Shown one piece after another: positions 5,272 to 54,670 of a stretch of 64,000 nt of DNA. The translations under genes and the position numbers were made by a program. Numbering within the stretch: the stretch's first letter is position 1; each line of letters opens with the position of its first letter. Origin of the DNA: an uncultured Bacteroidota bacterium (GTDB taxonomy: Bacteria; Bacteroidota; Bacteroidia; JABEUT01); assembly GCA_903916255.1 (NCBI GenBank), contig CAIWVW010000090.1, positions 2,229 to 66,228 on the forward strand, read 5' to 3'. The notes under the pieces are model-generated. The model did not search any database. It worked only from the letters and a program-made list of their open reading frames with translations, and was not told the origin of the DNA.

Positions 5272-5373
5272 TAAACTACGAACTTTTTAACACTCGAAAG
5301 ATAATTTATAACGCATAACTTATAACTCATAACTATTGATGCTATCTTTGAGCCAAAAATATACGATTACACT

Positions 5374-8853: not shown

Positions 8854-9573
8854 CTATCGGTGAATGTTTAAAGCCAGAAGTCCAACTATTCCGAAAAGGA
8901 TAATAGCAAAAATAATACCGCCGACAGCTTTCCCTGTACCGGTGTATTTGCCCTGTTCCAAATGTATTTTATGAAACGCAACAATAGCAAAAATAATGGC
9001 CAGTATGGCTAAAATGCCTCCTGCAATAACCCCTCCACTAACCACTGTAGTGGCAAGCATAACCGTGGCCCATGTAGCTCCGGCGTTTATGGAAGCCTGA
9101 ATAATTACCCAAGCGGCAAAAGAAATAAGCGTTAATGTAAGTGCAAACATGCCTAAATGCTGGCTCGCTTTAGCTTGCTTGCAAACCCTTGCCGCCATGG
9201 CGCGCAAGCTATCCCTTGAAATTTCGGGGCCGGGCTTTGAAAAATCAAGTGTAGGTGATTCTGTGGCAGATTCTATTTTCGTTGACGAAAAATTCTTGTT
9301 ATAAACAGCTGGTGTGGTTATATCATTAAAATCAGGAATTGGGTTTTCTGCTGTAATCGTATTGACCGGCGAATGAAATTCCTTAGCTGCTAAAGCTTTT
9401 GGCAACACAGATTTGATATTTGCAGGTGAAGCGGCAACCGGATTGTTGTATATTGTTTTAGGCGCTTTATTCACATGCCCGAAAGTATAACCGGGCAGGT
9501 ATTTTCTTTTGGTAATGGTGCACGATGCGCATAACAGTAAGCAGGCTAAAAGAAGGTATTTGTATTTCATCAT
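8854..9573 (-). CDS. Lipoprotein-anchored membrane protein with DUF4190-like C-terminal helical hairpin (paralog 1)
   Basis: Lipobox ...LLCASC followed by TITKRKYLPGYTFGH. The C-terminus has two or three TM helices with the GKYTGTGKAVGGIIFAIILFGIV pattern typical of DUF4190. Confidence 0.4.
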   Translation of the reverse strand: MMKYKYLLLACLLLCASCTITKRKYLPGYTFGHVNKAPKTIYNNPVAASPANIKSVLPKALAAKEFHSPVNTITAENPIPDFNDITTPAVYNKNFSSTKIESATESPTLDFSKPGPEISRDSLRAMAARVCKQAKASQHLGMFALTLTLISFAAWVIIQASINAGATWATVMLATTVVSGGVIAGGILAILAIIFAIVAFHKIHLEQGKYTGTGKAVGGIIFAIILFGIVGLLALNIHR

Positions 9574-14277: not shown

Positions 14278-14580
14278 GATTCCTTCGCTCACACCTCATC
14301 CTTGGTCTTCTCCTATGAGGCGAGGGTTGGTTGGCACGCGAAACTTAATGAGATTTCCCTCTCATGGTAGGAGAGGATAATCTGATGTCTTGGGCATAAA
14401 TAAACCGGCCGGCCTTTTGGGAATCCAAATGTTCCCCCACCATAAATATTATTTCATCATCGCAGGGGCCAACCCATGTGTCTGCCCAAAATCCGAAACG
14501 GATGTTCCCGCAATTTAAATGGATGTTTTGTTTTGTGGGCGGACACTTGGGGTTGCACTAATGTATTTGGTGTAATTATA

Positions 14581-14608
14581 TTTGGGCGGACATATATGTC
14601 CGCCCAAA
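14581..14608. promoter_or_regulatory. 28-bp perfect palindrome tttgggcggacatat/atgtccgcccaaa, part of a four-copy GGGC(G/A)GACA motif array
   Basis: Seen directly. Two further motif copies lie at 14478-14491 (reverse orientation, gtgtctgcccaaaa) and 14534-14546 (tgtgggcggacac). Confidence 0.5.
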
Positions 14609-14614
14609 CGAATA

Positions 14615-14647
14615 CCCGTTTTTACCCGTTATTTCCATAAAAAAATC
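14615..14647. repeat. Direct repeat copy 1 (cccgtttttacccgttatttccataaaaaaatc)
   Basis: About 28 of 30 positions identical to 18978..19008 (gccgtttttagccgttatttccatacaaatc). The pair brackets the SprB-repeat gene plus tRNA-Pro. Confidence 0.6.
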
Positions 14648-14675
14648 CCGCCTAAATAAATATTCAGGCGGGATT
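14639..14675 (-). terminator. Rho-independent terminator downstream of the SprB-repeat gene
   Basis: On the minus strand: aatcccgcc-tgaatatttattt-aggcgggat followed by TTTTTTT. This is an 8-9 bp GC-rich stem. Confidence 0.55.
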
Positions 14676-14697
14676 AATAAAGTGTATTGGTAATGGG

Positions 14698-17600
14698 TTA
14701 ATTCATTTTCACCACCTTCTTTTCATCTACCAAGCTGCCATCTTTGCCGAGTATGCGAATCAGGTAAATGCCGTTTGGTTGAGAGGACAAGTCAATTGTG
14801 AATGTTAATTGGTTAATGGTGAATTGTGAATACACCTTTTGCCCAAGGGTATTGTAAACCTCAACTGTCATTTGCCCACTACCCAATGCCGACTGGACAT
14901 TGAAAAGCCCATTGCTGGGGTTTGGGTATATATTCACCGAAGAGCCATTGCCGTTGACAGTAGCCACGCTGCTGGTGTTAGGTATTACCACGCAGACAGT
15001 TTGCGAGCAACCATTTGCATCGGTAACGGTGCAACAATAATCGCCCACACATTCGCCTTTAATGGTGTCGGTAGTGGCACCGCCGGGGCTCCACAGGTAG
15101 GTAAAGGGAGCGGTTCCGCCGCTAACCACTGTAACTGCAGCTTCTCCATTGCAACCACCAATTAAGGTGGAACTGATGGAATCAGCCGAAATAACCATTC
15201 CCGCAGGTTGTGTCAACGTAACCGCATCTATGGCCGTGCAACCATTGCTATCAGTAAGTGTTACCGTATATGTTCCTGCACTAAGGCCGGAAACAGTAGC
15301 ATTAGTACCTCCGCTTGGCGACCATGCATAGGTGTAAGGCAATGTTCCTCCCGAAGGAGCTGTGCTTGCGCTTCCATTGCTGTTTCCAAAGCACCCTGAA
15401 ACGGAAACTCCGCTAACGGCAATACTTAAGGTAGGAGGAAGTGTTATTGTTTCGGATGCGGTAGCTGTGCAACCATTGCTATCGGTGGCGGTAATGGTGT
15501 AAGTTCCAGCACCGAGTGTGGTAATGGTAGTTAGGTTAGTGCCGCCGCTTGGCGCCCAAACATAATTGTAAGGCGGTGTGCCGCCTGTAGCTGCCTGGGA
15601 AGAAATATAACCCATTCCGGCGCAAGCCAGGGTGGTTCGCGAAGCAATGGCAATATACAATGTTGTGCCCGACTGCGTTATAGTTACAGATGCGCTGGCA
15701 GTACATCCATTATTATCGGTTGCATTAATTGTATACGTTCCTGCACTCAGGTTAGAGGCCGTTAAGTTAGTGCCGCCGCTTGGCGCCCAGGCATATGTGT
15801 AAGGCCCTGTCCCGCCACTGGCGGGATTAGCAGTGGCGCTTCCCGAATTGGGAACACATAAAATATTGGTCTGCGATGCAATGTTTATTGCGACCGCCGT
15901 TGCAGGTTGTGTTACAGTTGCAGATGCAGTATCGGTGCAGCCATTGTTGTCGGTTACAGTAATCGTATAGCTACCTGCACTCAGGTTTGATGCGGTAAGT
16001 CCTGTGCCACCGCTGGGGGTCCAGTTATAGGTATAAGGAGCCGTTCCGCCGGAAGCTACAGTTGCGGTAATACTACCTGATGAATTGCCATTGCAGGCCA
16101 CATTGGTAATGGAAGCAATAGAAATTGCCACCCCATTAGCCGGTTGAGATATGGTAACCGATGCCGATGCCGTGCATCCGTTGTTGTCTGTTGCGGTAAT
16201 AGTGTAGCTGCCTGCACTCAGGTTAGATGCGGTAAGGTTTGTTTGTCCGCCCGGATTCCATACATAGGTGTAAGGCAAAGAACCACCGTTTGGCACATTA
16301 GCGGTTGCGCTTCCGTCATCAAGCCCGTTGCAGAGTACATTTATTTCTGAGGCGATAGTAATGGATAACGTATTCGGTTGTGTAATTGTTGCAGATGCTG
16401 TTGCGGTGCAACCATTGTTATCGGTAGCGGTAATGGTATAGGTTCCTGCACTCAGGTTGGAGGCTGTAAGTCCTGTGCCACCGCTTGGTGTCCAATTATA
16501 AGTATATGGGGATGTACCACCATTTGGAATATTCGCGGTAGCCGTTCCCGTAGGGCCGCCATTGCAAAGCACTCCTGTAACTGATTGGATGGTTATTGTT
16601 AATGCATTCGGTTGTGTAATTGTTACCGAAGCAGTCGCGGTACATCCGCTATTATCGGTAGCGGTAATAGTATATGTTCCCGCACTTAGGTTAGAAGCAT
16701 TAAGGTTCGTACCTCCACTTGGCGCCCAGTTATACGTATAAGGAGCCGTTCCGCCGGTGGCTGCATTAGCTGTTGCACTTCCGTTACTGTTTCCATTGCA
16801 AAGCAGGTCCGTCTGCGATGCGATTGTAATTGATAAAGCAGTAGGTTGGGTAATAGTTGCCGAAGCGGTTGCAATACACCCATTGTTATCGGTGGCGGTA
16901 ATGGTGTATGTTCCTGCACTAAGATTAGAAGCCGTAAGATTTGTTCCGCCTGAAGGTGTCCAGTTATACGTATATGGTGTCGCACCGCCAGTGGCTGCAT
17001 TTGCAGTTGCACTTCCTGTAGAGCTGCCATTACAAAGCACATTTGTTTGCGATGCGATTGAAATAGATAATGCAGTTGGTTGTGTAATAGTTGCCGAAGC
17101 TGTTGCGGTGCAACCATTATTATCTGTTGCCGTAATTGTATAGGTTCCGGCACTCAGATTAGAAGCAGTGGGATTTGTTCCGCCGCTCGGCGTCCAGTTG
17201 TAAGTATAAGGTGCTGTTCCGCCGGTGGCTGCATTTGCAGTAATACTTCCGGTGGAAGAGCCATTGCAAAGCACATTGGTCTGCGATGCGATTGAAATAC
17301 CCAATGTTGTGGGCTGTGTAATAGTAACTGAGGTAGTTGTTGTGCATCCCGAATTATCGGAAACGGTAACAGTATATGTTCCTGCACTAAGGGTAGAAAC
17401 TGTTTGCGCGGTATATCCATTCGGGTTCCAGGAGTATGTATAGGGTGTGGCTCCTCCTACAGGGTTTATGGTTGCACTGCCATTTGAATTTCCATTACAT
17501 AAAACATTGGAGTTAATTGTTGCCGTAGCTGTAAGCGTATTGGAAGTTGTCAGCGTAGCAGATGCTGTTCCCATACAACCCGTATGGTCGGTAACAGTAA

Positions 17601-27703: not shown

Positions 27704-27716
27704 TTTTAAATGAAAA

Positions 27717-28499
27717 ATGAACAGTGAGAAACGAAAAATAAAATACTATTATTCTAAGTTTTTCACTTTTCATTTTTCGCTTTTCATTTGTTTTTTCTGG
27801 TCCTCGCTAAACTGTGTTACCGGGCAAACCTTAGGTGCGGTTGTATATACCTTTGCACAGGTAAACGATTCAGCGTTTGGTATTCAGTTTTACGATAAGT
27901 ACAACCCAAAATTAGGCGGTGATTCTACCCGCAAATATTTTGACGGGCATCTATGCAATGGCTTGATTGAGGACCATTATGCTGATGGTACTATCCTGCA
28001 CAAAGGATATTATACGGATGGCAAACTTACCCAATACACCAATTATTATCCCGATGGAGTAGTGGAAAGGATATTCAGGCCTACATCTGACAGGAAAGAT
28101 GAATTGAAAAAGTATTATGAAAGTAAAACGCTCAAATCGGATGTTCAATATTATGACGGCAATTCTACTTTATGGCAGGATTATTACGATAGCGGACAAC
28201 TCTCTTATGTAGAAGAATACGATAAAAAACATGAGCGTGTGCTGAGAAGGTGCTCCTACTACAAAGATGGAAAACCGCTCTCTGTTTTTGTCCCATCCGT
28301 AACCCAGGGTGATATAATACGCTATAGCCTGAAAGAATATTTCCCAAACGGGCAACTGCAGGAAGAATCGGAAGCGCTTTACAGCAAAGACTCCTTTGAC
28401 TTTTTTAAAGATGGGGATGATAAGCAATATAATGACAAAGGCAATTTGGTTGCAGAATATGAGTATGTGGGCGGTAAATTGAATAATACTATCAAATAA
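27717..28499 (+). CDS. Hypothetical secreted protein with MORN/YwqK-like repeats
   Basis: Repeated Y-x-D/N-G-x-L motifs (YYTDGKLTQYTNYYPDGVVE, YYDSGQLSYVEEYDKK, YYKDGKPL) resemble the MORN-variant repeats of YwqK-family proteins. Confidence 0.3.
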   Translation: MNSEKRKIKYYYSKFFTFHFSLFICFFWSSLNCVTGQTLGAVVYTFAQVNDSAFGIQFYDKYNPKLGGDSTRKYFDGHLCNGLIEDHYADGTILHKGYYTDGKLTQYTNYYPDGVVERIFRPTSDRKDELKKYYESKTLKSDVQYYDGNSTLWQDYYDSGQLSYVEEYDKKHERVLRRCSYYKDGKPLSVFVPSVTQGDIIRYSLKEYFPNGQLQEESEALYSKDSFDFFKDGDDKQYNDKGNLVAEYEYVGGKLNNTIK

Positions 28500-30302: not shown

Positions 30303-30375
30303 TTATCTATTTTAAATGAGGGGGCTTATCTCTTTTATCGTATCTCTTATCTCTCATAATTCTTAGTTTTGCTCC

Positions 30376-47395: not shown

Positions 47396-49369
47396 TTATT
47401 TGGTAACTTCTTCACAATATACTTTTATGATAAGGTATGCCTGGGTAAGACCCAGTTCTCCCGCTTTGCCAAAATCTTGGCAGGCATTCATTTTATAGTT
47501 TTCAATATAAAGCAATAAACCCCTGTTGTAATAGGCGTCGGCAAATTGCGGATTAATTTGAACCGCATAATTATAGTCGGCAATGGCTCCGTCGAAATCT
47601 TGCAATTTATATTTTACATAGGCCCTGTTATAATAGGCATAGGCAAAATCAGGTTCCATCTGAATAACTTTACTGAAATCTGTCAGCGCTTTTTTATAGT
47701 TTTCATTGACAGGAGTATTCACTGCGCGGAAAGTTTTGTTTATATAAGTTTCTTGCTCATTATTATTCAGATTCCCCGCTATTTCTATTTCTTTGCAAAT
47801 GTCGATTCCGAGGGCAAAGTAGGCTATTGCACAGGTAGAATCGTGTTTAATAATTTCTGAATAATCATTGGCTGCGGCTCTGAATAATTGCATGCTTGTT
47901 TCCTGCAAGGCCTTTTCCAGCAAGGCATCCGCTTGTTTCGCACTATCTTTTCGGCCCTCTGTCTTCAGTTGGACAGAACCGCTTTCTTCAAGTTTTGCTT
48001 TTGAATTTGTTAAGCATAAGCGCAGGTATTCTTTATTGCTTTTCTTTAGCAGCACCGGATTGCAGACTGCCTTTCCCTGTCCGCTATTTTTTAACGTCAA
48101 ATAATAGACAGGCATCAAATCGATATTAGCGGTATCCGGCAGTTTTTGATTCCCGCCGTTAAAATTGGCATTTAAAGCCAGCATGTGCATGAGCGTAGTA
48201 GAGTCATTAGCCGCTTGAAACGAGTTTCTCGTAAGACTAAGTTCGGTCATTATTTTGCCCAACTTATAGTCCTCTTTTGCTCCTGCATTATCGTTCATTG
48301 CCTCTTTTAACTTAGCCCTGTCATAATAGGTTTCAACTAAATAGGGAAACAAATCTATAGCCGTAGTATAGTCGCTTAAAGCACCTTTGAAGTCGTTTAA
48401 CCGGGTTTTAATTTTCGCCCTGTTAAGAAGAGCCTGTATATTTTTCGGATTTAAAGTAACAACCTTATCGAAATCAGCGAGGGCATCCGTATAATCGTTT
48501 TTTTGCGCCTCAAGTACACCTCTGTTAAAATACGCTAGGGCATTCATAGGGTCTATATCTATAACCTTATTAAAATCTTCCATGGCTTTTTTATCGTCAT
48601 TTAATTTTAAATATGCCTCGGCCATGTAATAATAAGCAAGTGTAGAGGATGAATCTATTTTCAAGGCCAGCGTATATTGCGCTATTGCTTCTTTATATTT
48701 GCCAAGGGTATCATCAGTAATTCCTGTCCGAATATATATATCGATATCTTTCGGATTGAGTTTACGTGCAATGGCGTAGTTTATCAGTGCGCTGTCAAAC
48801 TTATTAATCCCATTTTCAGCCATGCCTTTGCATAGGTATAAGTTTTCTTGTCCATAATTCAGGCGCAATGCTGTGTTACAATCACTTATTACTGCCGTAA
48901 AATTTTGCAGGGATAGCTCGAAAAAAGCCCTTTGCACATACAATTCACCGGAAGCCTGAGCCTGTTCCTGCTCCCATCCGATAACACGATTTATATCATT
49001 AATAGCTCCCTCAAAGTCGCCCAAGCGATAGCGAATAAGGCTTCTGTAATGATAAGCATCATACAGCAACGGGTCGAACATGGAAACGGCACTTGTAAGG
49101 TCCTGTTCGGCGCCAAGGTTGTCATTCAGGTAATACTTGCACAAGCCTCGGTAAAAATAGGCCACATATTCACCGGGTTTCACAGCAATGCAGAGGTCAA
49201 GTTTCTGCATAGCGTCGTAATACTTCTTATTCGATAAGTCTTTCCTGGCCTCTTCAAGATAGACATTCACATTCAGTTGTGCCCATGCGTGGATGGTAAA
49301 AGCAAAATAAAAAGCAACAGTGAGCAGTAACTTAAATAATTTCATCAAAGACATCGCTAAAACACACAA
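47396..49369 (-). CDS. Secreted tetratricopeptide-repeat protein
   Basis: Signal peptide followed by about 15 TPR units with the (A/S)YYNRG...A..D(F/Y) pattern throughout. Confidence 0.6.
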   Translation of the reverse strand: MCVLAMSLMKLFKLLLTVAFYFAFTIHAWAQLNVNVYLEEARKDLSNKKYYDAMQKLDLCIAVKPGEYVAYFYRGLCKYYLNDNLGAEQDLTSAVSMFDPLLYDAYHYRSLIRYRLGDFEGAINDINRVIGWEQEQAQASGELYVQRAFFELSLQNFTAVISDCNTALRLNYGQENLYLCKGMAENGINKFDSALINYAIARKLNPKDIDIYIRTGITDDTLGKYKEAIAQYTLALKIDSSSTLAYYYMAEAYLKLNDDKKAMEDFNKVIDIDPMNALAYFNRGVLEAQKNDYTDALADFDKVVTLNPKNIQALLNRAKIKTRLNDFKGALSDYTTAIDLFPYLVETYYDRAKLKEAMNDNAGAKEDYKLGKIMTELSLTRNSFQAANDSTTLMHMLALNANFNGGNQKLPDTANIDLMPVYYLTLKNSGQGKAVCNPVLLKKSNKEYLRLCLTNSKAKLEESGSVQLKTEGRKDSAKQADALLEKALQETSMQLFRAAANDYSEIIKHDSTCAIAYFALGIDICKEIEIAGNLNNNEQETYINKTFRAVNTPVNENYKKALTDFSKVIQMEPDFAYAYYNRAYVKYKLQDFDGAIADYNYAVQINPQFADAYYNRGLLLYIENYKMNACQDFGKAGELGLTQAYLIIKVYCEEVTK

Positions 49370-49383
49370 AATTACGGTTTACA

Positions 49384-49403
49384 GACTTATCTATTGATAA
49401 GTC
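49384..49403. promoter_or_regulatory. 20-bp palindrome gacttatc-tatt-gataagtc in the divergent TPR-gene/era promoter region
   Basis: Seen directly. Confidence 0.3.
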
Positions 49404-49482
49404 AGACATTGGACGATAAATCCCAATCGTTTATTTCTATTCCGTTCGCCGCCTGAGATTATAGATTACTTTTGCAGGCTGA

Positions 49483-50367
49483 ATGGAAAATAAAAAACAT
49501 AAATCGGGTTGGGTAAGTGTGGTTGGAAGCCCTAATGTGGGGAAATCTACGCTTGTGAATGAATTGGTGGGCGAGAAGCTATCTATTGTTACCAATAAGC
49601 CTCAAACTACCCGCCATCGTATTACGGCAATATGCAATGGGGATGACTATCAGATGGTGTTTTCCGATACACCCGGGGTGCTAAGGCCAACCTATAAAAT
49701 GCAGGAGGCTATGATGAAAAGGGTAGGGGAAGCGCTTGAGGATGCGGATATTATTATGGCCGTTATAGATGTAAATGAAAAATATTTCCCGCAGGAATTG
49801 TTTGAAAAGTTGAAAAGAACGAAACTGCCGACCATAGTTGTGCTTAATAAACTTGACCTTGGCGAACAAGAGGACGTTGCCCGGAAACTGACCTTACTGA
49901 ACGAACAGATAAAACCAACCAGTATCATTGCTACTTCAGCAACCCATAATTTCAACATTAAGGAGTTAAAAGAACTCTTAATCAAGCACCTTCCGGAAGG
50001 TGAGCCATATTACCCGAAAGACCAGATTTCTGATTTGCCGGAGAAATTTTTTGTGGCTGAAATTTTGCGCGAGAAAATATTGATGTATTACCAGCAGGAG
50101 ATTCCGTATTCCGTAGAGGTCGTTACAACTGACTTCGTTGAAACTGAAAAGCTGATACGAATTCGTTGTGAAATATTTGTAAACAGGCATACACAAAAAG
50201 CTATCATAATCGGCAAAGCCGGAGCAGCCCTTAAAAGAACCGCCACCGCTGCCCGCCACGACCTTGAAAAATGGCTGAACGCAAAAGTATTTTTAGAAGT
50301 GGATGTAAAAGTGAAAAAAGATTGGCGCGATAATGATATGCACTTAAAGAATTTCGGTTATTTATAA
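49483..50367 (+). CDS. era: GTPase Era
   Basis: G1 GSPNVGKST, G3 DTPG, G4 NKLD, and a C-terminal KH domain. Confidence 0.9.
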   Translation: MENKKHKSGWVSVVGSPNVGKSTLVNELVGEKLSIVTNKPQTTRHRITAICNGDDYQMVFSDTPGVLRPTYKMQEAMMKRVGEALEDADIIMAVIDVNEKYFPQELFEKLKRTKLPTIVVLNKLDLGEQEDVARKLTLLNEQIKPTSIIATSATHNFNIKELKELLIKHLPEGEPYYPKDQISDLPEKFFVAEILREKILMYYQQEIPYSVEVVTTDFVETEKLIRIRCEIFVNRHTQKAIIIGKAGAALKRTATAARHDLEKWLNAKVFLEVDVKVKKDWRDNDMHLKNFGYL

Positions 50368-50371
50368 AAAC

Positions 50372-50440
50372 AATGCTAAATTGTTAATTGAAATGCTAAA
50401 TGAAATTCATTCACAATTTACAATTCACAATTTACAATTA
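50372..50440. repeat. Element A (about 68 bp) immediately upstream of the der start; inverted copy at 53171..53240
   Basis: aatgctaaattgttaattgaaatgctaaatgaaattcattcacaatttacaattcacaatttacaatta. It contains a 14-bp tandem direct repeat (tcacaatttacaat) x2. Confidence 0.7.
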
Positions 50441-50447
50441 GAAAAAG

Positions 50448-51770
50448 ATGTCAAGAATAGCAGCAATAGTAGGAAGGCCCAATGTAGGTAAATCGACCCT
50501 GTTCAACAGGCTTACGGAAACCCGTGAAGCGATTGAAGACCCGACCAGCGGTGTTACCCGAGACCGTCATTATGGCCGTGTGGAATGGAATGGTGAAAAT
50601 TTCACATTAATAGATACCGGAGGCTATGTGCATGGCAGCGATGATGTGTTTGAGGCCAGCATCCGAAACCAGGTACAGTTGGCTATTGATGAAGCAGACC
50701 TTATCATATTTGTGTTAGATGCTATGGAGGGCATTACGGGTGCCGATGAAATGGTTGCCGATATGCTGCGCAAATCTAAAAAGCAATTTAAAGACAAAAA
50801 AATATTGGTAGTGGGCAATAAAGCCGACACCCACGAAAGGGCGCACATGACCTCTGAATTTTATGCGTTGGGACTGGGAGAAGTATATCCCATTTCTGCT
50901 GTGAGTGGCGGAGGTACAGGCGAATTACTTGATGAAATTATTACCATATTCAAATCGGAGAAAGATGAATTCTACCCTGAAGGGTTACCAAGGATAGCTG
51001 TTGTGGGTAGGCCGAATGTGGGCAAATCATCCTTTATTAATGCACTAACAGGGGAGGAAAGAACCATTGTTACCGATATTGCAGGAACCACCCGCGATGC
51101 TATCGATTTACGTTTCACTAAATTCGGATATGACATACTTTTAGTAGATACAGCAGGGCTTCGCAAAAAGAGCAAAGAGAAAGAAGACGTTGAATTTTAT
51201 TCAGTATTACGTAGTGTTAGGGCAATTGAGCGTTCTGACATTTGTATATTGATTTTAGATGCCGAACAAGGCTTTGAAGCCCAGGATATGGCAATATTCA
51301 GTTTAGCGGTTAGTAACCACAAAGGGGTTGTAGTGGTGGTAAACAAATGGGATTTGGTTGAAAAAACAAACCAAACTACCGGCTATTTCACCGACTTTAT
51401 TCAGCTAAAACTGGCTCCTTTTAGCGATGTACCAATTGTTTTTACCTCAGTACACGAAAAGCAAAGGGTATTAAAAGTATTGGAAACAGCTATGCAGGTG
51501 TATAAGAACCGCAGCCAAAAAATTGCGACTTCCAAGTTGAATGATATTATGCTGCCCATTATTGAAGAGACTCCCCCTCCGGCAATCAAGACTAGGTATG
51601 TAAAAATGAAATATATCACGCAACTGCCAACGCCATTCCCGGCGTTTGCCATATTTTGTAACCACCCGCAATATGTGCAGGAATCATATAAACGCTTTTT
51701 GGAAAACCAACTGCGTGAAAAGTTTGAACTAAGCGGAACACCTATCGAGATTTTCTTTAGGCAGAAGTAA
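50448..51770 (+). CDS. der: Ribosome-biogenesis GTPase Der (EngA), two GTPase domains plus KH-like domain
   Basis: G1 motifs GRPNVGKST occur twice (aa 9 and about 187). The G4 motifs are NKAD and NKWD. Confidence 0.9.
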   Translation: MSRIAAIVGRPNVGKSTLFNRLTETREAIEDPTSGVTRDRHYGRVEWNGENFTLIDTGGYVHGSDDVFEASIRNQVQLAIDEADLIIFVLDAMEGITGADEMVADMLRKSKKQFKDKKILVVGNKADTHERAHMTSEFYALGLGEVYPISAVSGGGTGELLDEIITIFKSEKDEFYPEGLPRIAVVGRPNVGKSSFINALTGEERTIVTDIAGTTRDAIDLRFTKFGYDILLVDTAGLRKKSKEKEDVEFYSVLRSVRAIERSDICILILDAEQGFEAQDMAIFSLAVSNHKGVVVVVNKWDLVEKTNQTTGYFTDFIQLKLAPFSDVPIVFTSVHEKQRVLKVLETAMQVYKNRSQKIATSKLNDIMLPIIEETPPPAIKTRYVKMKYITQLPTPFPAFAIFCNHPQYVQESYKRFLENQLREKFELSGTPIEIFFRQK

Positions 51771-51793
51771 GGCACGGAAAACGATGCTATTTA

Positions 51794-52360
51794 CTAAGGT
51801 CTGATTAATTTATAGCTATTTAACAGGTTATCTATTTTACCACCTATCATAAATCGATAAACATTTCCTGATTTAATGAACCAACCTAGGTGTCCTCGCT
51901 GTTTTATGACCCTCCCTTTTGAGTCGAACTGATTAAATTGAAGAGGTGGTGAAATACACAATCTTTCATAGATAGCTCCATTTCTTATATAATCAAGTTC
52001 TATTCGAACTTCAGTTGCTGGATTATTTTGGAAGGTATCTTTTGTAAAGTTTAGAGTATCGCTAAATAAAATGCAAATATCATGTATTTTTTTTTGATTT
52101 TTTTCTATATAGACATCTGCGTCTGTATGTTTTCCTACCTCTCCACATTGAACCCCAACTAGATAATTCTTTGACAAGCCAAGTGAATATATATCAACCT
52201 CATCTGGATAATGAGGTGTGTTTTTATTTTGAAAAATTGAGCATCCTGTTAAGTAGAAAATAATGCTTATACTAATAAGCATTCTTATTTTAATTCTTTT
52301 TAGAATAATGAAACTACTTGAAGTAGTATGCTCTCGTGATATGTTATTTGGCAAACCCAA
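51794..52360 (-). CDS. Hypothetical lipoprotein, about 33% GC (well below the flanks)
   Basis: The probable true start is the internal MLISISIIFYLTGCS (lipobox). There is no recognisable family. The ORF-track version overlaps the pyrF 3' end by 17 bp. Confidence 0.35.
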   Translation of the reverse strand: MGLPNNISREHTTSSSFIILKRIKIRMLISISIIFYLTGCSIFQNKNTPHYPDEVDIYSLGLSKNYLVGVQCGEVGKHTDADVYIEKNQKKIHDICILFSDTLNFTKDTFQNNPATEVRIELDYIRNGAIYERLCISPPLQFNQFDSKGRVIKQRGHLGWFIKSGNVYRFMIGGKIDNLLNSYKLIRP

Positions 52361-53165
52361 AATCCATGCTCAATTTGAGGTTCATGGCTTCTTCACGCGC
52401 TTTGGCTGCAAAGTCTTTTTCATTTCCCGCGTATAGTATACTGCGGGATGCATTAATCAATAGCCTTCCGTCTTTGGTGGCTCCTGCTTTTATCACTTCT
52501 TCCATATCTCCGCCTTGCGAACCAACACCGGGAACTAATAAGAAATGGTCAGGTATTATTTTACGGATACTAGTTAAGGCCTCCGCTTTTGTTGCGCCTA
52601 CCACATACATCATATTTTCCTTATTTCCCCAGTCTTTTGATGTTTCAAACACATGTTCATAAAGGGCTTTTCCGTCTTTCATCTTCTGCAGTTGAAAGTC
52701 TTTAGCGCCTTCATTAGAGGTAAGCCCCAATAATATTGACCATTTGCCTTTATGTTCCAGGTAAGGTGTGATGGAATCCTTGCCCATATAGGGTGATAAA
52801 GTAATAGCATGAACATCCAAATCATCAAAGAATGCTTTGGCATACATGGCAGAAGTATTTCCTATATCGCCACGTTTTGCATCTGCTATTATCAAAATAT
52901 CCTTTGGAATAAGTTCAATAGTTTGACGGAGAATATCCCAACCTTTAGCGCCCATAGCTTCATAAAACGCAATGTTCAATTTATAAGCCACACAAAGGTC
53001 ATGCGTAGCTTCAATTATCTGCCTGTTAAAACTGATAACCGCAACAGGGGTCTTTGCAAAGTGGGTTGGCAGTTTATCAATGTCGGTATCAAGCCCTACG
53101 CAAAGGAAGGACTTTTTCTTTTTTACTTGTATGTCAAGTTCCTTTAGGGGAAGAATTCTACTCAT
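52344..53165 (-). CDS. pyrF: Orotidine-5'-phosphate decarboxylase (long, type 2 form)
   Basis: ...SFLCVGLDTDIDKLP...ADAKRGDIGNTSAMYA... The roughly 273 aa length matches type-2 PyrF. Confidence 0.85.
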   Translation of the reverse strand: MSRILPLKELDIQVKKKKSFLCVGLDTDIDKLPTHFAKTPVAVISFNRQIIEATHDLCVAYKLNIAFYEAMGAKGWDILRQTIELIPKDILIIADAKRGDIGNTSAMYAKAFFDDLDVHAITLSPYMGKDSITPYLEHKGKWSILLGLTSNEGAKDFQLQKMKDGKALYEHVFETSKDWGNKENMMYVVGATKAEALTSIRKIIPDHFLLVPGVGSQGGDMEEVIKAGATKDGRLLINASRSILYAGNEKDFAAKAREEAMNLKLSMDFGFAK

Positions 53166-53170
53166 TTCTT

Positions 53171-53240
53171 TAATTGTAAATTGTGAATTGTAAATTGTGA
53201 ATGAATTTCATTTACCATTTAGCATTTACAATTAAGCATT
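53171..53240. repeat. Element B, the inverted copy of 50372..50440, immediately upstream of the pyrF start on the minus strand
   Basis: Reverse complement reads aatgcttaattgtaaatgctaaatggtaaatgaaattcattcacaatttacaattcacaatttacaatta. The last about 45 nt are identical to element A, with a 6-nt indel. Confidence 0.7.
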
Positions 53241-54311
53241 AACCGAATATCCCTCCTGGAGGCGTTGTGCATTTTCGGCTAATTGAATGGCTTCTATCAA
53301 GTCCTGTATATCACCTTCCATAAAGGCTGGCAGGTTATGTGCCGTAAATCCTATACGGTGGTCGGTTATACGGCTTTGCGGAAAGTTATATGTCCTGATT
53401 TTCTCGGAACGGTCACCACCTGCAACAAGAGTTTTACGCTTGGCAGCATTGGCGCTGTTGCGCTTTTCCATCTGCATTTCATACATGCGGCTACGCAATA
53501 CAGTCATAGCCTTATCCATGTTTTTTATCTGTGAACGCTCATCCTGGCATTGTACTACTAAACCCGTTGGGATGTGCGTTATTCTCACGGCAGACTTGGT
53601 AGTATTTACCGATTGTCCGCCTTTTCCGCCTGAACAGAAGGTATCTTTACGTAAATCTGATTCCTTGATTTCCACATCCAGTTCATCGGCTTCCGGCATA
53701 ACAATTACAGTTGCGGCAGAAGTATGCACACGTCCCTGTGTTTCGGTAGCAGGCACCCGTTGCACACGGTGTACGCCCGATTCATATTTCAAGGTTCCAT
53801 AAACATTCTCGCCATGGACTTCAAAAACAACCTCTTTATATCCACCCATTGTACCTTCGGAATGGTCAACTATTTCTAATTTCCAGCCTTTTATTTCGCA
53901 ATAGCGGAGATACATATTGAACAACTCACCGGCAAAAAGAGATGCTTCATCGCCACCGGTTCCGGCACGGATTTCAACCACCACATCTTTTGCATCTTCA
54001 GGGTCTTTGGGTACTAACATCACACGGATATCTTCATCCAACTTATCCAGTATGGGCTGAAGTTCTTCCATTTCAGCCTTCGCCATTTCCCTTATTTCCT
54101 CATCCTTTTCCTTATACAGCATGTCTTTGGCATTCTGTATGTTGGAGGTGAGGTTCCGATACTCGATATAGGCATTATGAATCTTGGTCAGTTCCTTATA
54201 TTCCTTGTTGAGTTTGGCAAACTTCTTTATATCCGACAAAGCGTCGGGTTCTGAAAGCTGCCTTTCAATCTCGACATATCGTTCTTCTATGGCTTCTAAT
54301 TTATCTAACAT
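53232..54311 (-). CDS. prfA: Peptide chain release factor 1
   Basis: GGQ motif (SGGKGGQSVNTT) and PAT tripeptide (RVPATETQGRVHTSAATV), which is specific to RF1. Confidence 0.9.
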   Translation of the reverse strand: MLDKLEAIEERYVEIERQLSEPDALSDIKKFAKLNKEYKELTKIHNAYIEYRNLTSNIQNAKDMLYKEKDEEIREMAKAEMEELQPILDKLDEDIRVMLVPKDPEDAKDVVVEIRAGTGGDEASLFAGELFNMYLRYCEIKGWKLEIVDHSEGTMGGYKEVVFEVHGENVYGTLKYESGVHRVQRVPATETQGRVHTSAATVIVMPEADELDVEIKESDLRKDTFCSGGKGGQSVNTTKSAVRITHIPTGLVVQCQDERSQIKNMDKAMTVLRSRMYEMQMEKRNSANAAKRKTLVAGGDRSEKIRTYNFPQSRITDHRIGFTAHNLPAFMEGDIQDLIEAIQLAENAQRLQEGYSVNA

Positions 54312-54364
54312 GGCGCAAAGATAGGCAAAATGCGGGTAATAACTATGGGCATCTGCTATGACGT

Positions 54365-54670
54365 ATGAACGAGTTATTAACGCTAATTGAAGGAATGAAT
54401 TATATTTGTAAGACCATGAACAATATTCTCGATTTCTTACAAAAATTACTTGGCAAATACAGCGATTTTAAACATTTTACCGTTAGCTGGTTTGTTTATC
54501 TGGCATGGGCTCCCTGCATATTATGGGGGCTGTATGACGGAATGCTTTATATACTTGGAAAAGATAAAAGTGACGAAAACCTTACTAACTTTTACATCCG
54601 CACCGGAGTGGGTTGTATATTGTTCCTTATCTGGTTTTTCTTGCTGCGTTCAAAAGGGAAAAGAAATTAA
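54365..54670 (+). CDS. Hypothetical small membrane protein
   Basis: 101 aa with two hydrophobic helices. Weak coding evidence. Confidence 0.25.
   Translation: MNELLTLIEGMNYICKTMNNILDFLQKLLGKYSDFKHFTVSWFVYLAWAPCILWGLYDGMLYILGKDKSDENLTNFYIRTGVGCILFLIWFFLLRSKGKRN

Follow-up and report, generated by a model that had tools for sequence, protein, structure and literature searches.

A window of 64,000 nucleotides from an uncultured Bacteroidota bacterium (contig CAIWVW010000090.1 of assembly GCA_903916255.1) was analyzed for two copies of a short element built from tandem 7-nt units, which lie in inverted orientation directly upstream of the genes der and pyrF. The closest Der proteins were annotated to uncultured 'Bacteroidia bacterium' metagenome-assembled genomes, and the window encodes SprB-repeat domains and C-terminal sorting domains of the type IX secretion system (T9SS). 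By matches to NCBIfam families, the four genes flanking the elements are era, der, pyrF, and prfA, which confirms der and pyrF as named in an earlier note on this DNA. The genes and elements are listed below by position in the window.

era, 49483 to 50367, forward strand: upstream of element A on the same strand (NF000908, 1e-103).
Element A, 50372 to 50440, forward strand: a 69-nt imperfect palindrome built from heptamers, with a distal arm (50372-50402; units AATGCTA, AATTGTT, and AATTGAA), a loop (about 50403-50408), and a start-proximal arm (50409-50440).
Exact core on the side of copy A, 50397 to 50440, forward strand: 44 nt, comprising the loop and the entire start-proximal arm.
der (engA), 50448 to 51770, forward strand: directly downstream of element A (TIGR03594, 7e-158).
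pyrF, 52344 to 53165, reverse strand: directly downstream of element B (TIGR02127, 2e-71).
Exact core on the side of copy B, 53171 to 53214, reverse strand: 44 nt.
Element B, 53171 to 53240, reverse strand: a 70-nt copy in the spacer between prfA and pyrF, with the same polarity relative to its downstream gene as element A.
prfA, 53232 to 54311, reverse strand: upstream of element B on the same strand (NF001859, 6e-157).

The inverted copies before der and pyrF were recovered by a repeat search as arms at 50391-50446 and 53165-53220, which are 56 nt long and 95% complementary. The gaps to the start codons were also as first described, with 7 nt between position 50440 and the der ATG and 5 nt between position 53171 and the pyrF ATG. 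The longest exact inverted match was 44 nt long (TAAATGAAATTCATTCACAATTTACAATTCACAATTTACAATTA), where 50397-50440 is the reverse complement of 53171-53214. Hence, the identity of about 45 nt claimed in the earlier note corresponds to an exact run of 44 nt, of which the string quoted there covers 38 nt, while the claimed identity over 65-70 bp applies to the core and not to the outer parts of the elements, which are about 70% alike. A 14-bp tandem repeat noted within the run was found as a 14-nt unit in 2.2 copies, equal to a 7-nt unit in 4.4 copies. The 44-nt run was the sole exact repeat of at least 25 nt between different loci of the window. A 17-mer from the arm had nine matches in the window at up to three mismatches, against 0.93 expected, and nine or more matches were reached in none of 100 shuffles. 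By simple arithmetic, an exact match of 44 nt is not expected in 64 kb, and a chance origin of the repeat pair is excluded.

Element A occupies the 80-nt spacer between era and der, and element B occupies the 66-nt spacer between prfA and pyrF, where the flanking genes are co-oriented in both cases. The distal heptamer of element B overlaps the end of prfA, covering its last two codons and stop codon. The start of der (ATGTCAAGAATA) is kept in relatives.

Each element is an imperfect palindrome of tandem 7-nt units. The start-proximal arm reads (ATTCACA ATTTACA)x2 followed by ATTA, so that ATTYACA units stand at the start codon, and the distal arm is composed of the units AATGCTA, AATTGTA, and AATTGAA, with the loop AAATGAAATTC between the two arms. 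Tandem Repeats Finder (TRF) reported period 7 with 4.4 copies at both 50409-50439 and 53172-53202, and with 5.1 copies at 53209-53244. The arms are partly complementary, forming an inverted pair of 26 nt at 85%. Between copies A and B, the loop and the proximal arm are identical and the distal arms are about 70% alike.

As sense RNA, element A folded at -12.7 kcal/mol (z -2.9), and its antisense strand folded at -18.2 kcal/mol. For element B, the sense fold of the 66-nt spacer was -8.7 kcal/mol (z -1.7), or -13.3 kcal/mol (z -2.6) when the flanks were included, and the antisense fold was -20.1 kcal/mol (z -4.8). No match to Rfam 15 was found at E <= 1 on either strand of positions 49000-54500. 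An intrinsic terminator was rejected at both sites, as an AU-rich stem leads into AGAAAAAG or AAAGAA with no U-tract in the sense direction, and a terminator scan was empty at both elements.

Further copies were sought in metagenome contigs of the Joint Genome Institute (JGI) with a 27-mer of loop and arm sequence. Two extra copies were found at unrelated loci (L131 and L132), which brings the family to at least four members. The element of L131 is 98% identical to copy A over 55 nt. It is flanked by the 3' end of an aminomutase-like gene on one side and by a short-chain dehydrogenase (SDR) gene on the other, and 6 nt separate the end of its proximal arm from the GTG start codon of the SDR gene. 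The element of L132 (10763-10820) is positioned directly after recA and before a gene for a tetratricopeptide repeat (TPR) lipoprotein, and it overlaps the start of this gene: the ATG in the loop is the only plausible start for the lipoprotein signal peptide, which begins with MKFIHNLQFAFYLLLVGFLSTSC. In L132, the gene start thus appears to be supplied by the repeat element, and two of its heptamers encode residues 3-9 of the signal peptide.

In all four copies, the flanking genes are co-oriented and the ATTYACA arm stands at the downstream start. The AATGCTA units of the distal arm are kept across the four copies despite their poor pairing with the proximal arm. The downstream genes, which encode Der, PyrF, an SDR protein, and a TPR lipoprotein, have no common function. 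Because the SDR and TPR lipoprotein genes also have this element at their starts, in an unchanged polarity, it is a dispersed leader-type repeat and not a unique local duplication. A profile of the four copies detected no other full copy in the window or in the loci of relatives (nhmmer), and the 27-mer had no match in a scan of viral contigs. The elements were also considered as miniature inverted-repeat transposable elements (MITEs), which was rejected: inspection by eye revealed no duplicated bases common to the flanks of the four copies, and terminal inverted repeats of the transposon type were absent.

At 99.6-99.8% identity to the window, contigs from other samples carry identical elements in the same gene order. 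More distant relatives were obtained via their Der proteins, and the spacer between era and der in each of them is described below.

L127, Der identity 94%: hairpin of ATTRCTA and AATTAGT units.
L128, Der identity 91%: hairpin of TAACTWA and GTTATRA units.
L123, Der identity 89%: hairpin of ATTRCTA and AATTAGT units.
L124, Der identity 88%: hairpin of ATCAAAT and ATTTGAT units.
L129, Der identity 88%: AACTTTA-type units.
L130, Der identity 85%: AACTTTA-type units.
L125, Der identity 83%: spacer of 9 nt only, no element.
L126, Der identity 82%: hairpin of ATCAAAT and ATTTGAT units.
L135, Der identity 70%: weak heptad pattern.
L134, Der identity 69%: hairpin of ATCAAAT and ATTTGAT units.

A heptamer array was therefore present between era and der in eight relatives (L123, L124, L126-L130, and L134) spanning 69-94% Der identity, and the heptamer itself was already different at 94%. 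Seven of the spacers in relatives were compared with shuffled sequences, and six of them folded at -20.7 to -31.4 kcal/mol with z scores of -5.0 to -7.3. The seventh, that of L129, was weaker (-13.5 kcal/mol, z -2.1), and the spacer of L134, folded without a shuffle control, gave -11.9 kcal/mol. When distal arms were paired with proximal arms in a matrix, the mean duplex energy was -19.8 kcal/mol within a heptamer family versus -5.8 kcal/mol between families. As duplexes between arms of the same family were far stronger than those across families, the two arms changed together. No consensus structure was obtained by RNAalifold from a MAFFT alignment of nine spacers, because the arms are repetitive and non-homologous and the alignment columns fall out of register.

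The start-proximal arm contained fewer G than the distal arm in nine of nine elements, with zero to two G in eight of them and four in L130, and all orthologous variants compared at this site keep the same polarity. A GCATTTC motif at the junction of the loop and the arm was common to L123, L126, L127, and L134, with GCATTTTC in L128. This shared motif suggests that the heptamers changed in place rather than by wholesale replacement of the element.

A different picture emerged between prfA and pyrF. The two genes overlap in L124, and other sequence was found at the junction in L126 and L130. Because the junction in relatives contains either no spacer or unrelated sequence, copy B is specific to the lineage of the window. 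In L123, the spacer between prfA and pyrF (9051-9216, 166 nt) contains a long near-perfect palindrome, more G+C-rich, with the form ...attgagattgcttcgttcctcgcaat...attgcgaggaacgaagcaatctc..., which folds at -55.7 kcal/mol, is unrelated to copy B, and represents an inserted repeat of another kind.

A Shine-Dalgarno (SD) core was found within positions -20 to -4 of none of the 44 genes in the window, and the upstream regions contain about 10% G. Initiation independent of SD sequences is known for Bacteroidota and matches the SD-less genes observed here. The -7 promoter element of this phylum, TAnnTTTG, was present neither in the two spacers nor in the 200 nt upstream of either on the sense strand, which makes it probable, as judged from the sequence, that der is co-transcribed with era and pyrF with prfA.

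The earlier note had proposed a shared promoter, leader, or operator module that co-regulates der and pyrF. As a description of a shared module 5' of start codons this was right, and it extends to L131 and L132, but the co-regulation of der and pyrF found no support. As an explanation of the element, a shared DNA operator or promoter, in which heptamers containing TGTGA or TCACA would be bound by a transcription factor or a sigma factor so as to co-regulate der, pyrF, and other genes, is hard to credit. It would account for the identical 44-mer before both genes and for the additional copies before other genes, and a sigma-70-like match (TTCACA-17-TACAAT, 10 of 12 positions) lies in the proximal arm of both copies. 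Promoters of the sigma-70 type, however, are not used by the main sigma factor of Bacteroidota, and the implied leader would be about 3 nt long, for which reasons the match was rejected as a promoter. A promoter scan of the region returned 18 matches against 14.4 +/- 4.1 in shuffles, which is no excess, and the absence of the TAnnTTTG motif also speaks against a promoter module. The sequence is not kept upstream of the orthologous genes in close relatives: it is absent before der at 82-94% Der identity, where other heptamers occur, and absent before pyrF in all relatives examined, which is the opposite of a conserved operator. The genes downstream of the four copies, moreover, are unrelated in function.

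The core of the element also contains a short reading frame, which was open in both copies of the window.

Mini-ORF of copy A, 50400 to 50441, forward strand: 13 codons (MKFIHNLQFTIYN*), starting at the loop ATG and stopping 6 nt before the der ATG; possibly incidental.
Mini-ORF of copy B, 53170 to 53211, reverse strand: 13 codons, stopping 4 nt before the pyrF ATG.

In L131, this open reading frame (ORF) is likewise open, is one codon longer, and ends 1 nt before the SDR start. A coupling by leader peptide, in which ribosomes that finish translation of the 13-codon MKFIHNLQFTIYN frame would start again at der, pyrF, or the SDR gene, is improbable. The distances of 6, 4, and 1 nt in copies A, B, and L131 suit termination-reinitiation, and as the same ATG with the same upstream context starts the lipoprotein of L132, this context can probably initiate. 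Yet all copies share one identical core, so that they offer no independent support, and an open frame of 13 codons is unremarkable in AT-rich DNA, with a chance of very roughly two in five. Among relatives, no loop ATG was found in the hairpins of L127, L123, L126, and L134, and the ORFs of L124, L128, and L129 were non-equivalent or very short.

The earlier note had also raised the possibility that the inverted repeats mediate inversion of the segment between them. Inversion of the 2.7-kb segment containing der, a hypothetical protein gene, and pyrF through the 44-bp repeats would yield era followed by pyrF and prfA followed by der, and either product would leave each gene behind an identical leader. 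An exact inverted repeat of 44 bp exceeds the minimal length for homologous recombination, which counts in favor of this reading. Additionally, a Logan contig (L122) corresponds to positions 50411-53200 of the window, so that it begins and ends inside the two inverted copies. These ends are no evidence of inversion, because a k-mer assembler breaks at any repeat longer than k, and the repeat is simply a site where short-read assembly graphs break. Contigs from several samples were looked up, 11 with this Der and nine with this PyrF, and no alternative order was found: the arrangement era-der ... pyrF-prfA was present in every contig long enough to show the junctions. The same arrangement is kept in the relatives L124 and L126, which do not have the shared repeat. 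No recombinase or invertase gene was found between or beside the repeats, where the genes are era, der, the hypothetical protein gene, pyrF, prfA, and a purM-like gene. Inversion is therefore very improbable. For the annotation of the window, the repeat is evidence neither of a regulatory link between der and pyrF nor of an invertible segment.

A search of the literature with the heptamer strings returned irrelevant matches only, and the elements were compared with known repeats by their architecture. Hairpins of the repetitive extragenic palindromic (REP) type within operons modulate the stability of mRNA segments. Like REP sequences, bacterial interspersed mosaic elements (BIMEs), and MITEs, the elements of the window are short, dispersed, palindromic, and extragenic. 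They differ in having an internal 7-nt period, in the absence of a visible target-site duplication, and in their position, which is 5' of start codons instead of 3' of genes.

A closer likeness was found among heptanucleotide repeats. In cyanobacteria, hairpins of 7-bp short tandemly repeated repetitive (STRR) sequences occur between hupS and hupL, for which a role in transcript stability or translational coupling has been proposed (PMC2670836). The elements of the window share with them the tandem 7-nt arrays, the hairpin pairing, the position in a spacer between co-oriented and probably co-transcribed genes, and the occurrence at many genomic sites. They differ in their host, a member of Bacteroidia, in their AT-rich units (ATTYACA and AATGCTA rather than STRR1-3), in having four to five units per arm, and in ending 5-7 nt from a start codon.

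In Beggiatoaceae, cyanobacteria, and five Bacteroidetes, direct repeats of TAACTGA have been described that precede start codons by a few nucleotides (MacGregor, 2015; PMC4679880). The functions encoded downstream were patternless, and a translational role with binding of S1, a cold-shock protein (Csp), or CsrA was suggested (PMC4679880). Similar to the window elements, these repeats stand in 'forward' orientation a few nucleotides before SD-less starts and have no common downstream function, and their insertions and deletions come in 7-nt steps. In contrast, they are direct repeats with no predicted secondary structure and one indirect repeat in 170 sets, whereas the window elements are inverted arrays of another heptamer that form a stem-loop. 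Membership in the TAACTGA family was rejected on the basis of the units, which are ATTCACA/ATTTACA and AATGCTA/AATTGTA; the elements are of the same kind and of a different family.

Heptameric simple sequence repeats (SSRs) that are G-rich, such as GGGAATC in Xanthomonas and GGGGAYT in Nostoc, were reported by Rehm et al. (2015; PMC4692102), together with the finding that heptameric SSRs are over-represented in intergenic regions and in many genomes of bacteria. Related species of Xanthomonas share the intergenic sites of these repeats, whose sequence and length vary widely, inverted pairs were noted, and an origin by polymerase slippage on a 7-nt footprint was proposed (PMC4692102). The presence of a variable array at the same intergenic site in relatives and the occasional inverted pairs that could form stem-loops are common to these SSRs and the window elements. 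The former are G-rich and quadruplex-forming, in contrast to the arrays of the window, which are AT-rich and poor in G on the sense strand. In Nostoc, heptamer repeats near start codons altered reporter expression in an unresolved manner (bioRxiv 10.1101/2022.06.06.494920).

The phase-variable heptanucleotide repeats that precede hmw1A in Haemophilus influenzae likewise represent an SSR of this unit length in a 5' region, where RNA structure and processing reportedly matter for expression (PMC8262952, PMC12721329). These repeats act through changes of copy number between close isolates, in contrast to the window elements, which have about four units per array and are identical in four assemblies at 99.6-99.8% identity. 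A phase-variable SSR contingency locus was rejected for the window on a small sample, where the elements were identical in L120 and L121 (99.8% identical to the window) and L122 (99.6%) matched over the parts that it contains.

Tandem 7-nt units, dispersed intergenic sites, and variation at the same site in relatives identify the window element as an intergenic heptanucleotide repeat of the STRR or heptameric SSR class. The two inverted heptamer arrays, able to form a stem-loop, further provide the hairpin characteristic of the STRR type. Its adjacency to start codons is that of the TAACTGA repeats and its hairpin form is that of the STRR between hupS and hupL, so that features of both are combined in one element.

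The distribution of such arrays was examined in a scan for three ATTYACA units in tandem, where each species was represented by a single genome and genes were called crudely from ORFs. At least 119 loci (0.84 Mb) contained ATTYACA arrays, including representatives of Bacteroidota, Chloroflexota, Acidobacteriota, Cyanobacteria, Beggiatoaceae, Planctomycetota, Nitrospirota, Ignavibacteria, and others. Among the matches listed, 97 of 120 arrays were intergenic, of which 40 were within 40 nt of a gene start, and an inverted partner array was found at a distance of up to 150 nt for 28 of the 120. Some of the ATTYACA arrays are hairpins right before start codons, such as those in Nitrospirota (L080), Raineyaceae (L058), and Hormoscilla (L052). 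In the 0.84 Mb of matches listed, 345 arrays had period 7 and no other period had more than 58, a ratio of about six or more, and the heptamers were of 121 different kinds. The constant feature is the 7-nt period and not the sequence.

This dominance of period 7 across many phyla would also be expected if the elements were neutral or selfish by-products, in which arrays are made by slippage, become palindromic by template switching, are copied by gene conversion, and have no function. Such arrays would persist where they are harmless, that is, in short AT-rich spacers with a G-poor arm at the start codon. The slippage hypothesis in the literature (PMC4692102), the absence of an element between era and der in L125 and between prfA and pyrF in L124, and the heptamer turnover already seen at 94% Der identity favor this explanation as well. 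Several observations, suggestive but not decisive, stand against it: between era and der, relatives as distant as 69% Der identity retain a structured element of altered sequence, the polarity is the same in the four copies and in the orthologous variants compared, and the AATGCTA units of the distal arm are conserved in the four copies though they pair poorly. On balance, a functionless by-product is the main rival explanation, though less likely than not.

The most likely account, held with moderate confidence, is that the element is a dispersed heptamer hairpin acting at the RNA level in the era-der and prfA-pyrF messages. Replication slippage, a switch of template from one arm to the other, and gene conversion or copying from site to site would create its arrays and homogenize them, from which the 44-nt identity beside the diverged outer arms would follow. 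The element would be transcribed within the two messages, where the cistrons would be set apart by its AU-rich stem-loop, and the translation-initiation region of the downstream gene would be made up of the G-poor, A/U/C-rich arm and an A-rich tail. It may thereby set the stability of mRNA segments and the efficiency or coupling of downstream translation. As a generic module, it would stand upstream of der and pyrF by happenstance and would not be a device linking the two.

A number of observations weigh against an RNA-level role. Both copies of the window fold weakly as sense RNA (z -2.9 and -1.7) and better as antisense. With a spacer of 9 nt between era and der in L125 and overlapping prfA and pyrF genes in L124, the element is dispensable at both sites. 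Among the matches listed from the wider scan, start-adjacent ATTYACA arrays occur in both orientations (17 versus 23), which disfavors a strand-specific role of the heptamer sequence itself, as judged from these other phyla. The orientation bias and the arm covariation could also be obtained from purifying selection on tolerated insertions combined with template-switch mutation, with no positive function. Finally, both the co-transcription and the RNA-level effect of the element are read from sequence.

A more specific and more speculative proposal is that heptamer hairpins represent position-conserved, fast-evolving intercistronic control modules of SD-less Bacteroidota. The arms would change in concert and so maintain the stem, the G-poor arm would serve as a landing platform for the ribosome, S1, or a cold-shock protein, and copies would spread in the genome and occasionally donate a start codon as in L132. 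While this is doubtful at present, the series of spacers between era and der would, if it holds, constitute natural compensatory variants for a first test of the function of a bacterial heptamer repeat.

Heptanucleotide repeats of bacteria have been known since the cyanobacterial STRRs and are over-represented in many genomes, with neither their function nor the mechanism of their origin established. The present locus adds a case in which, at one intercistronic site of an uncultured Bacteroidia lineage, five heptamer families replace one another with their arms complementary and their polarity fixed. In reporter work, the era-der series could be used to separate the effect of structure from that of sequence.

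Between der and pyrF, the window contains an ORF (51794-52360, reverse strand) that had no family match and encodes a lipoprotein-like N-terminus (...ISIIFYLTGCS...). This ORF is absent in L124 and L126, where der is directly followed by pyrF, and two proteins with T9SS tails are found in its place in L123; the interval between der and pyrF is therefore variable.

In the window as a whole, all five intergenic heptamer arrays, those of elements A and B included, overlap a start codon or lie within 40 nt of one, on a background where 35% of the intergenic bases are within 45 nt upstream of a start. For example, an array of four to five ATAACTN units (5301-5334), similar to TAACTGA, is located 39 nt upstream of a gene for a pyridoxal phosphate (PLP) enzyme of Cys/Met metabolism, and the same heptamer family forms the era-der hairpin of L128. 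Four CTTATCT units (30325-30354), with no obvious inverted partner, lie 21 nt upstream of a gene for a PUA-domain S-adenosylmethionine (SAM) methyltransferase. A third site is a heptamer hairpin at 27704-27790 (array 27708-27789), which has AAATGAA-type and TTTTCAC-type arms and folds at -23.4 kcal/mol (z -4.8). The stop codon of a thioredoxin-reductase-like gene directly precedes this hairpin, and a T-run comes after it. The left arm contains an ATG (27717) at which the frame of a MORN-repeat protein begins. The N-terminus of this protein resembles a signal peptide (MNSEKRKIKYYYSKFFTFHFSLFICFF...), and the two coding halves of the hairpin, one Lys-rich and the other Phe-rich, are complementary to each other.

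A candidate third copy at 14794-14831, with AATTGTG-like units of period 7, was rejected as a coding coincidence, since it is part of the coding sequence for a genuine C-terminal sorting domain of the T9SS (...FTINQLTFTID...) in a large SprB-repeat protein. A tandem repeat of a 234-nt unit in four copies (16352-17298, 75% matches) was found in the large SprB-repeat/T9SS gene and presumably reflects repeated protein domains. Additionally, a convergent intergenic region of 420 nt (14278-14697) contains several G+C-rich palindromes, such as gggcggacatatatgtccgccc, which are unlike the AT-rich heptamer elements.

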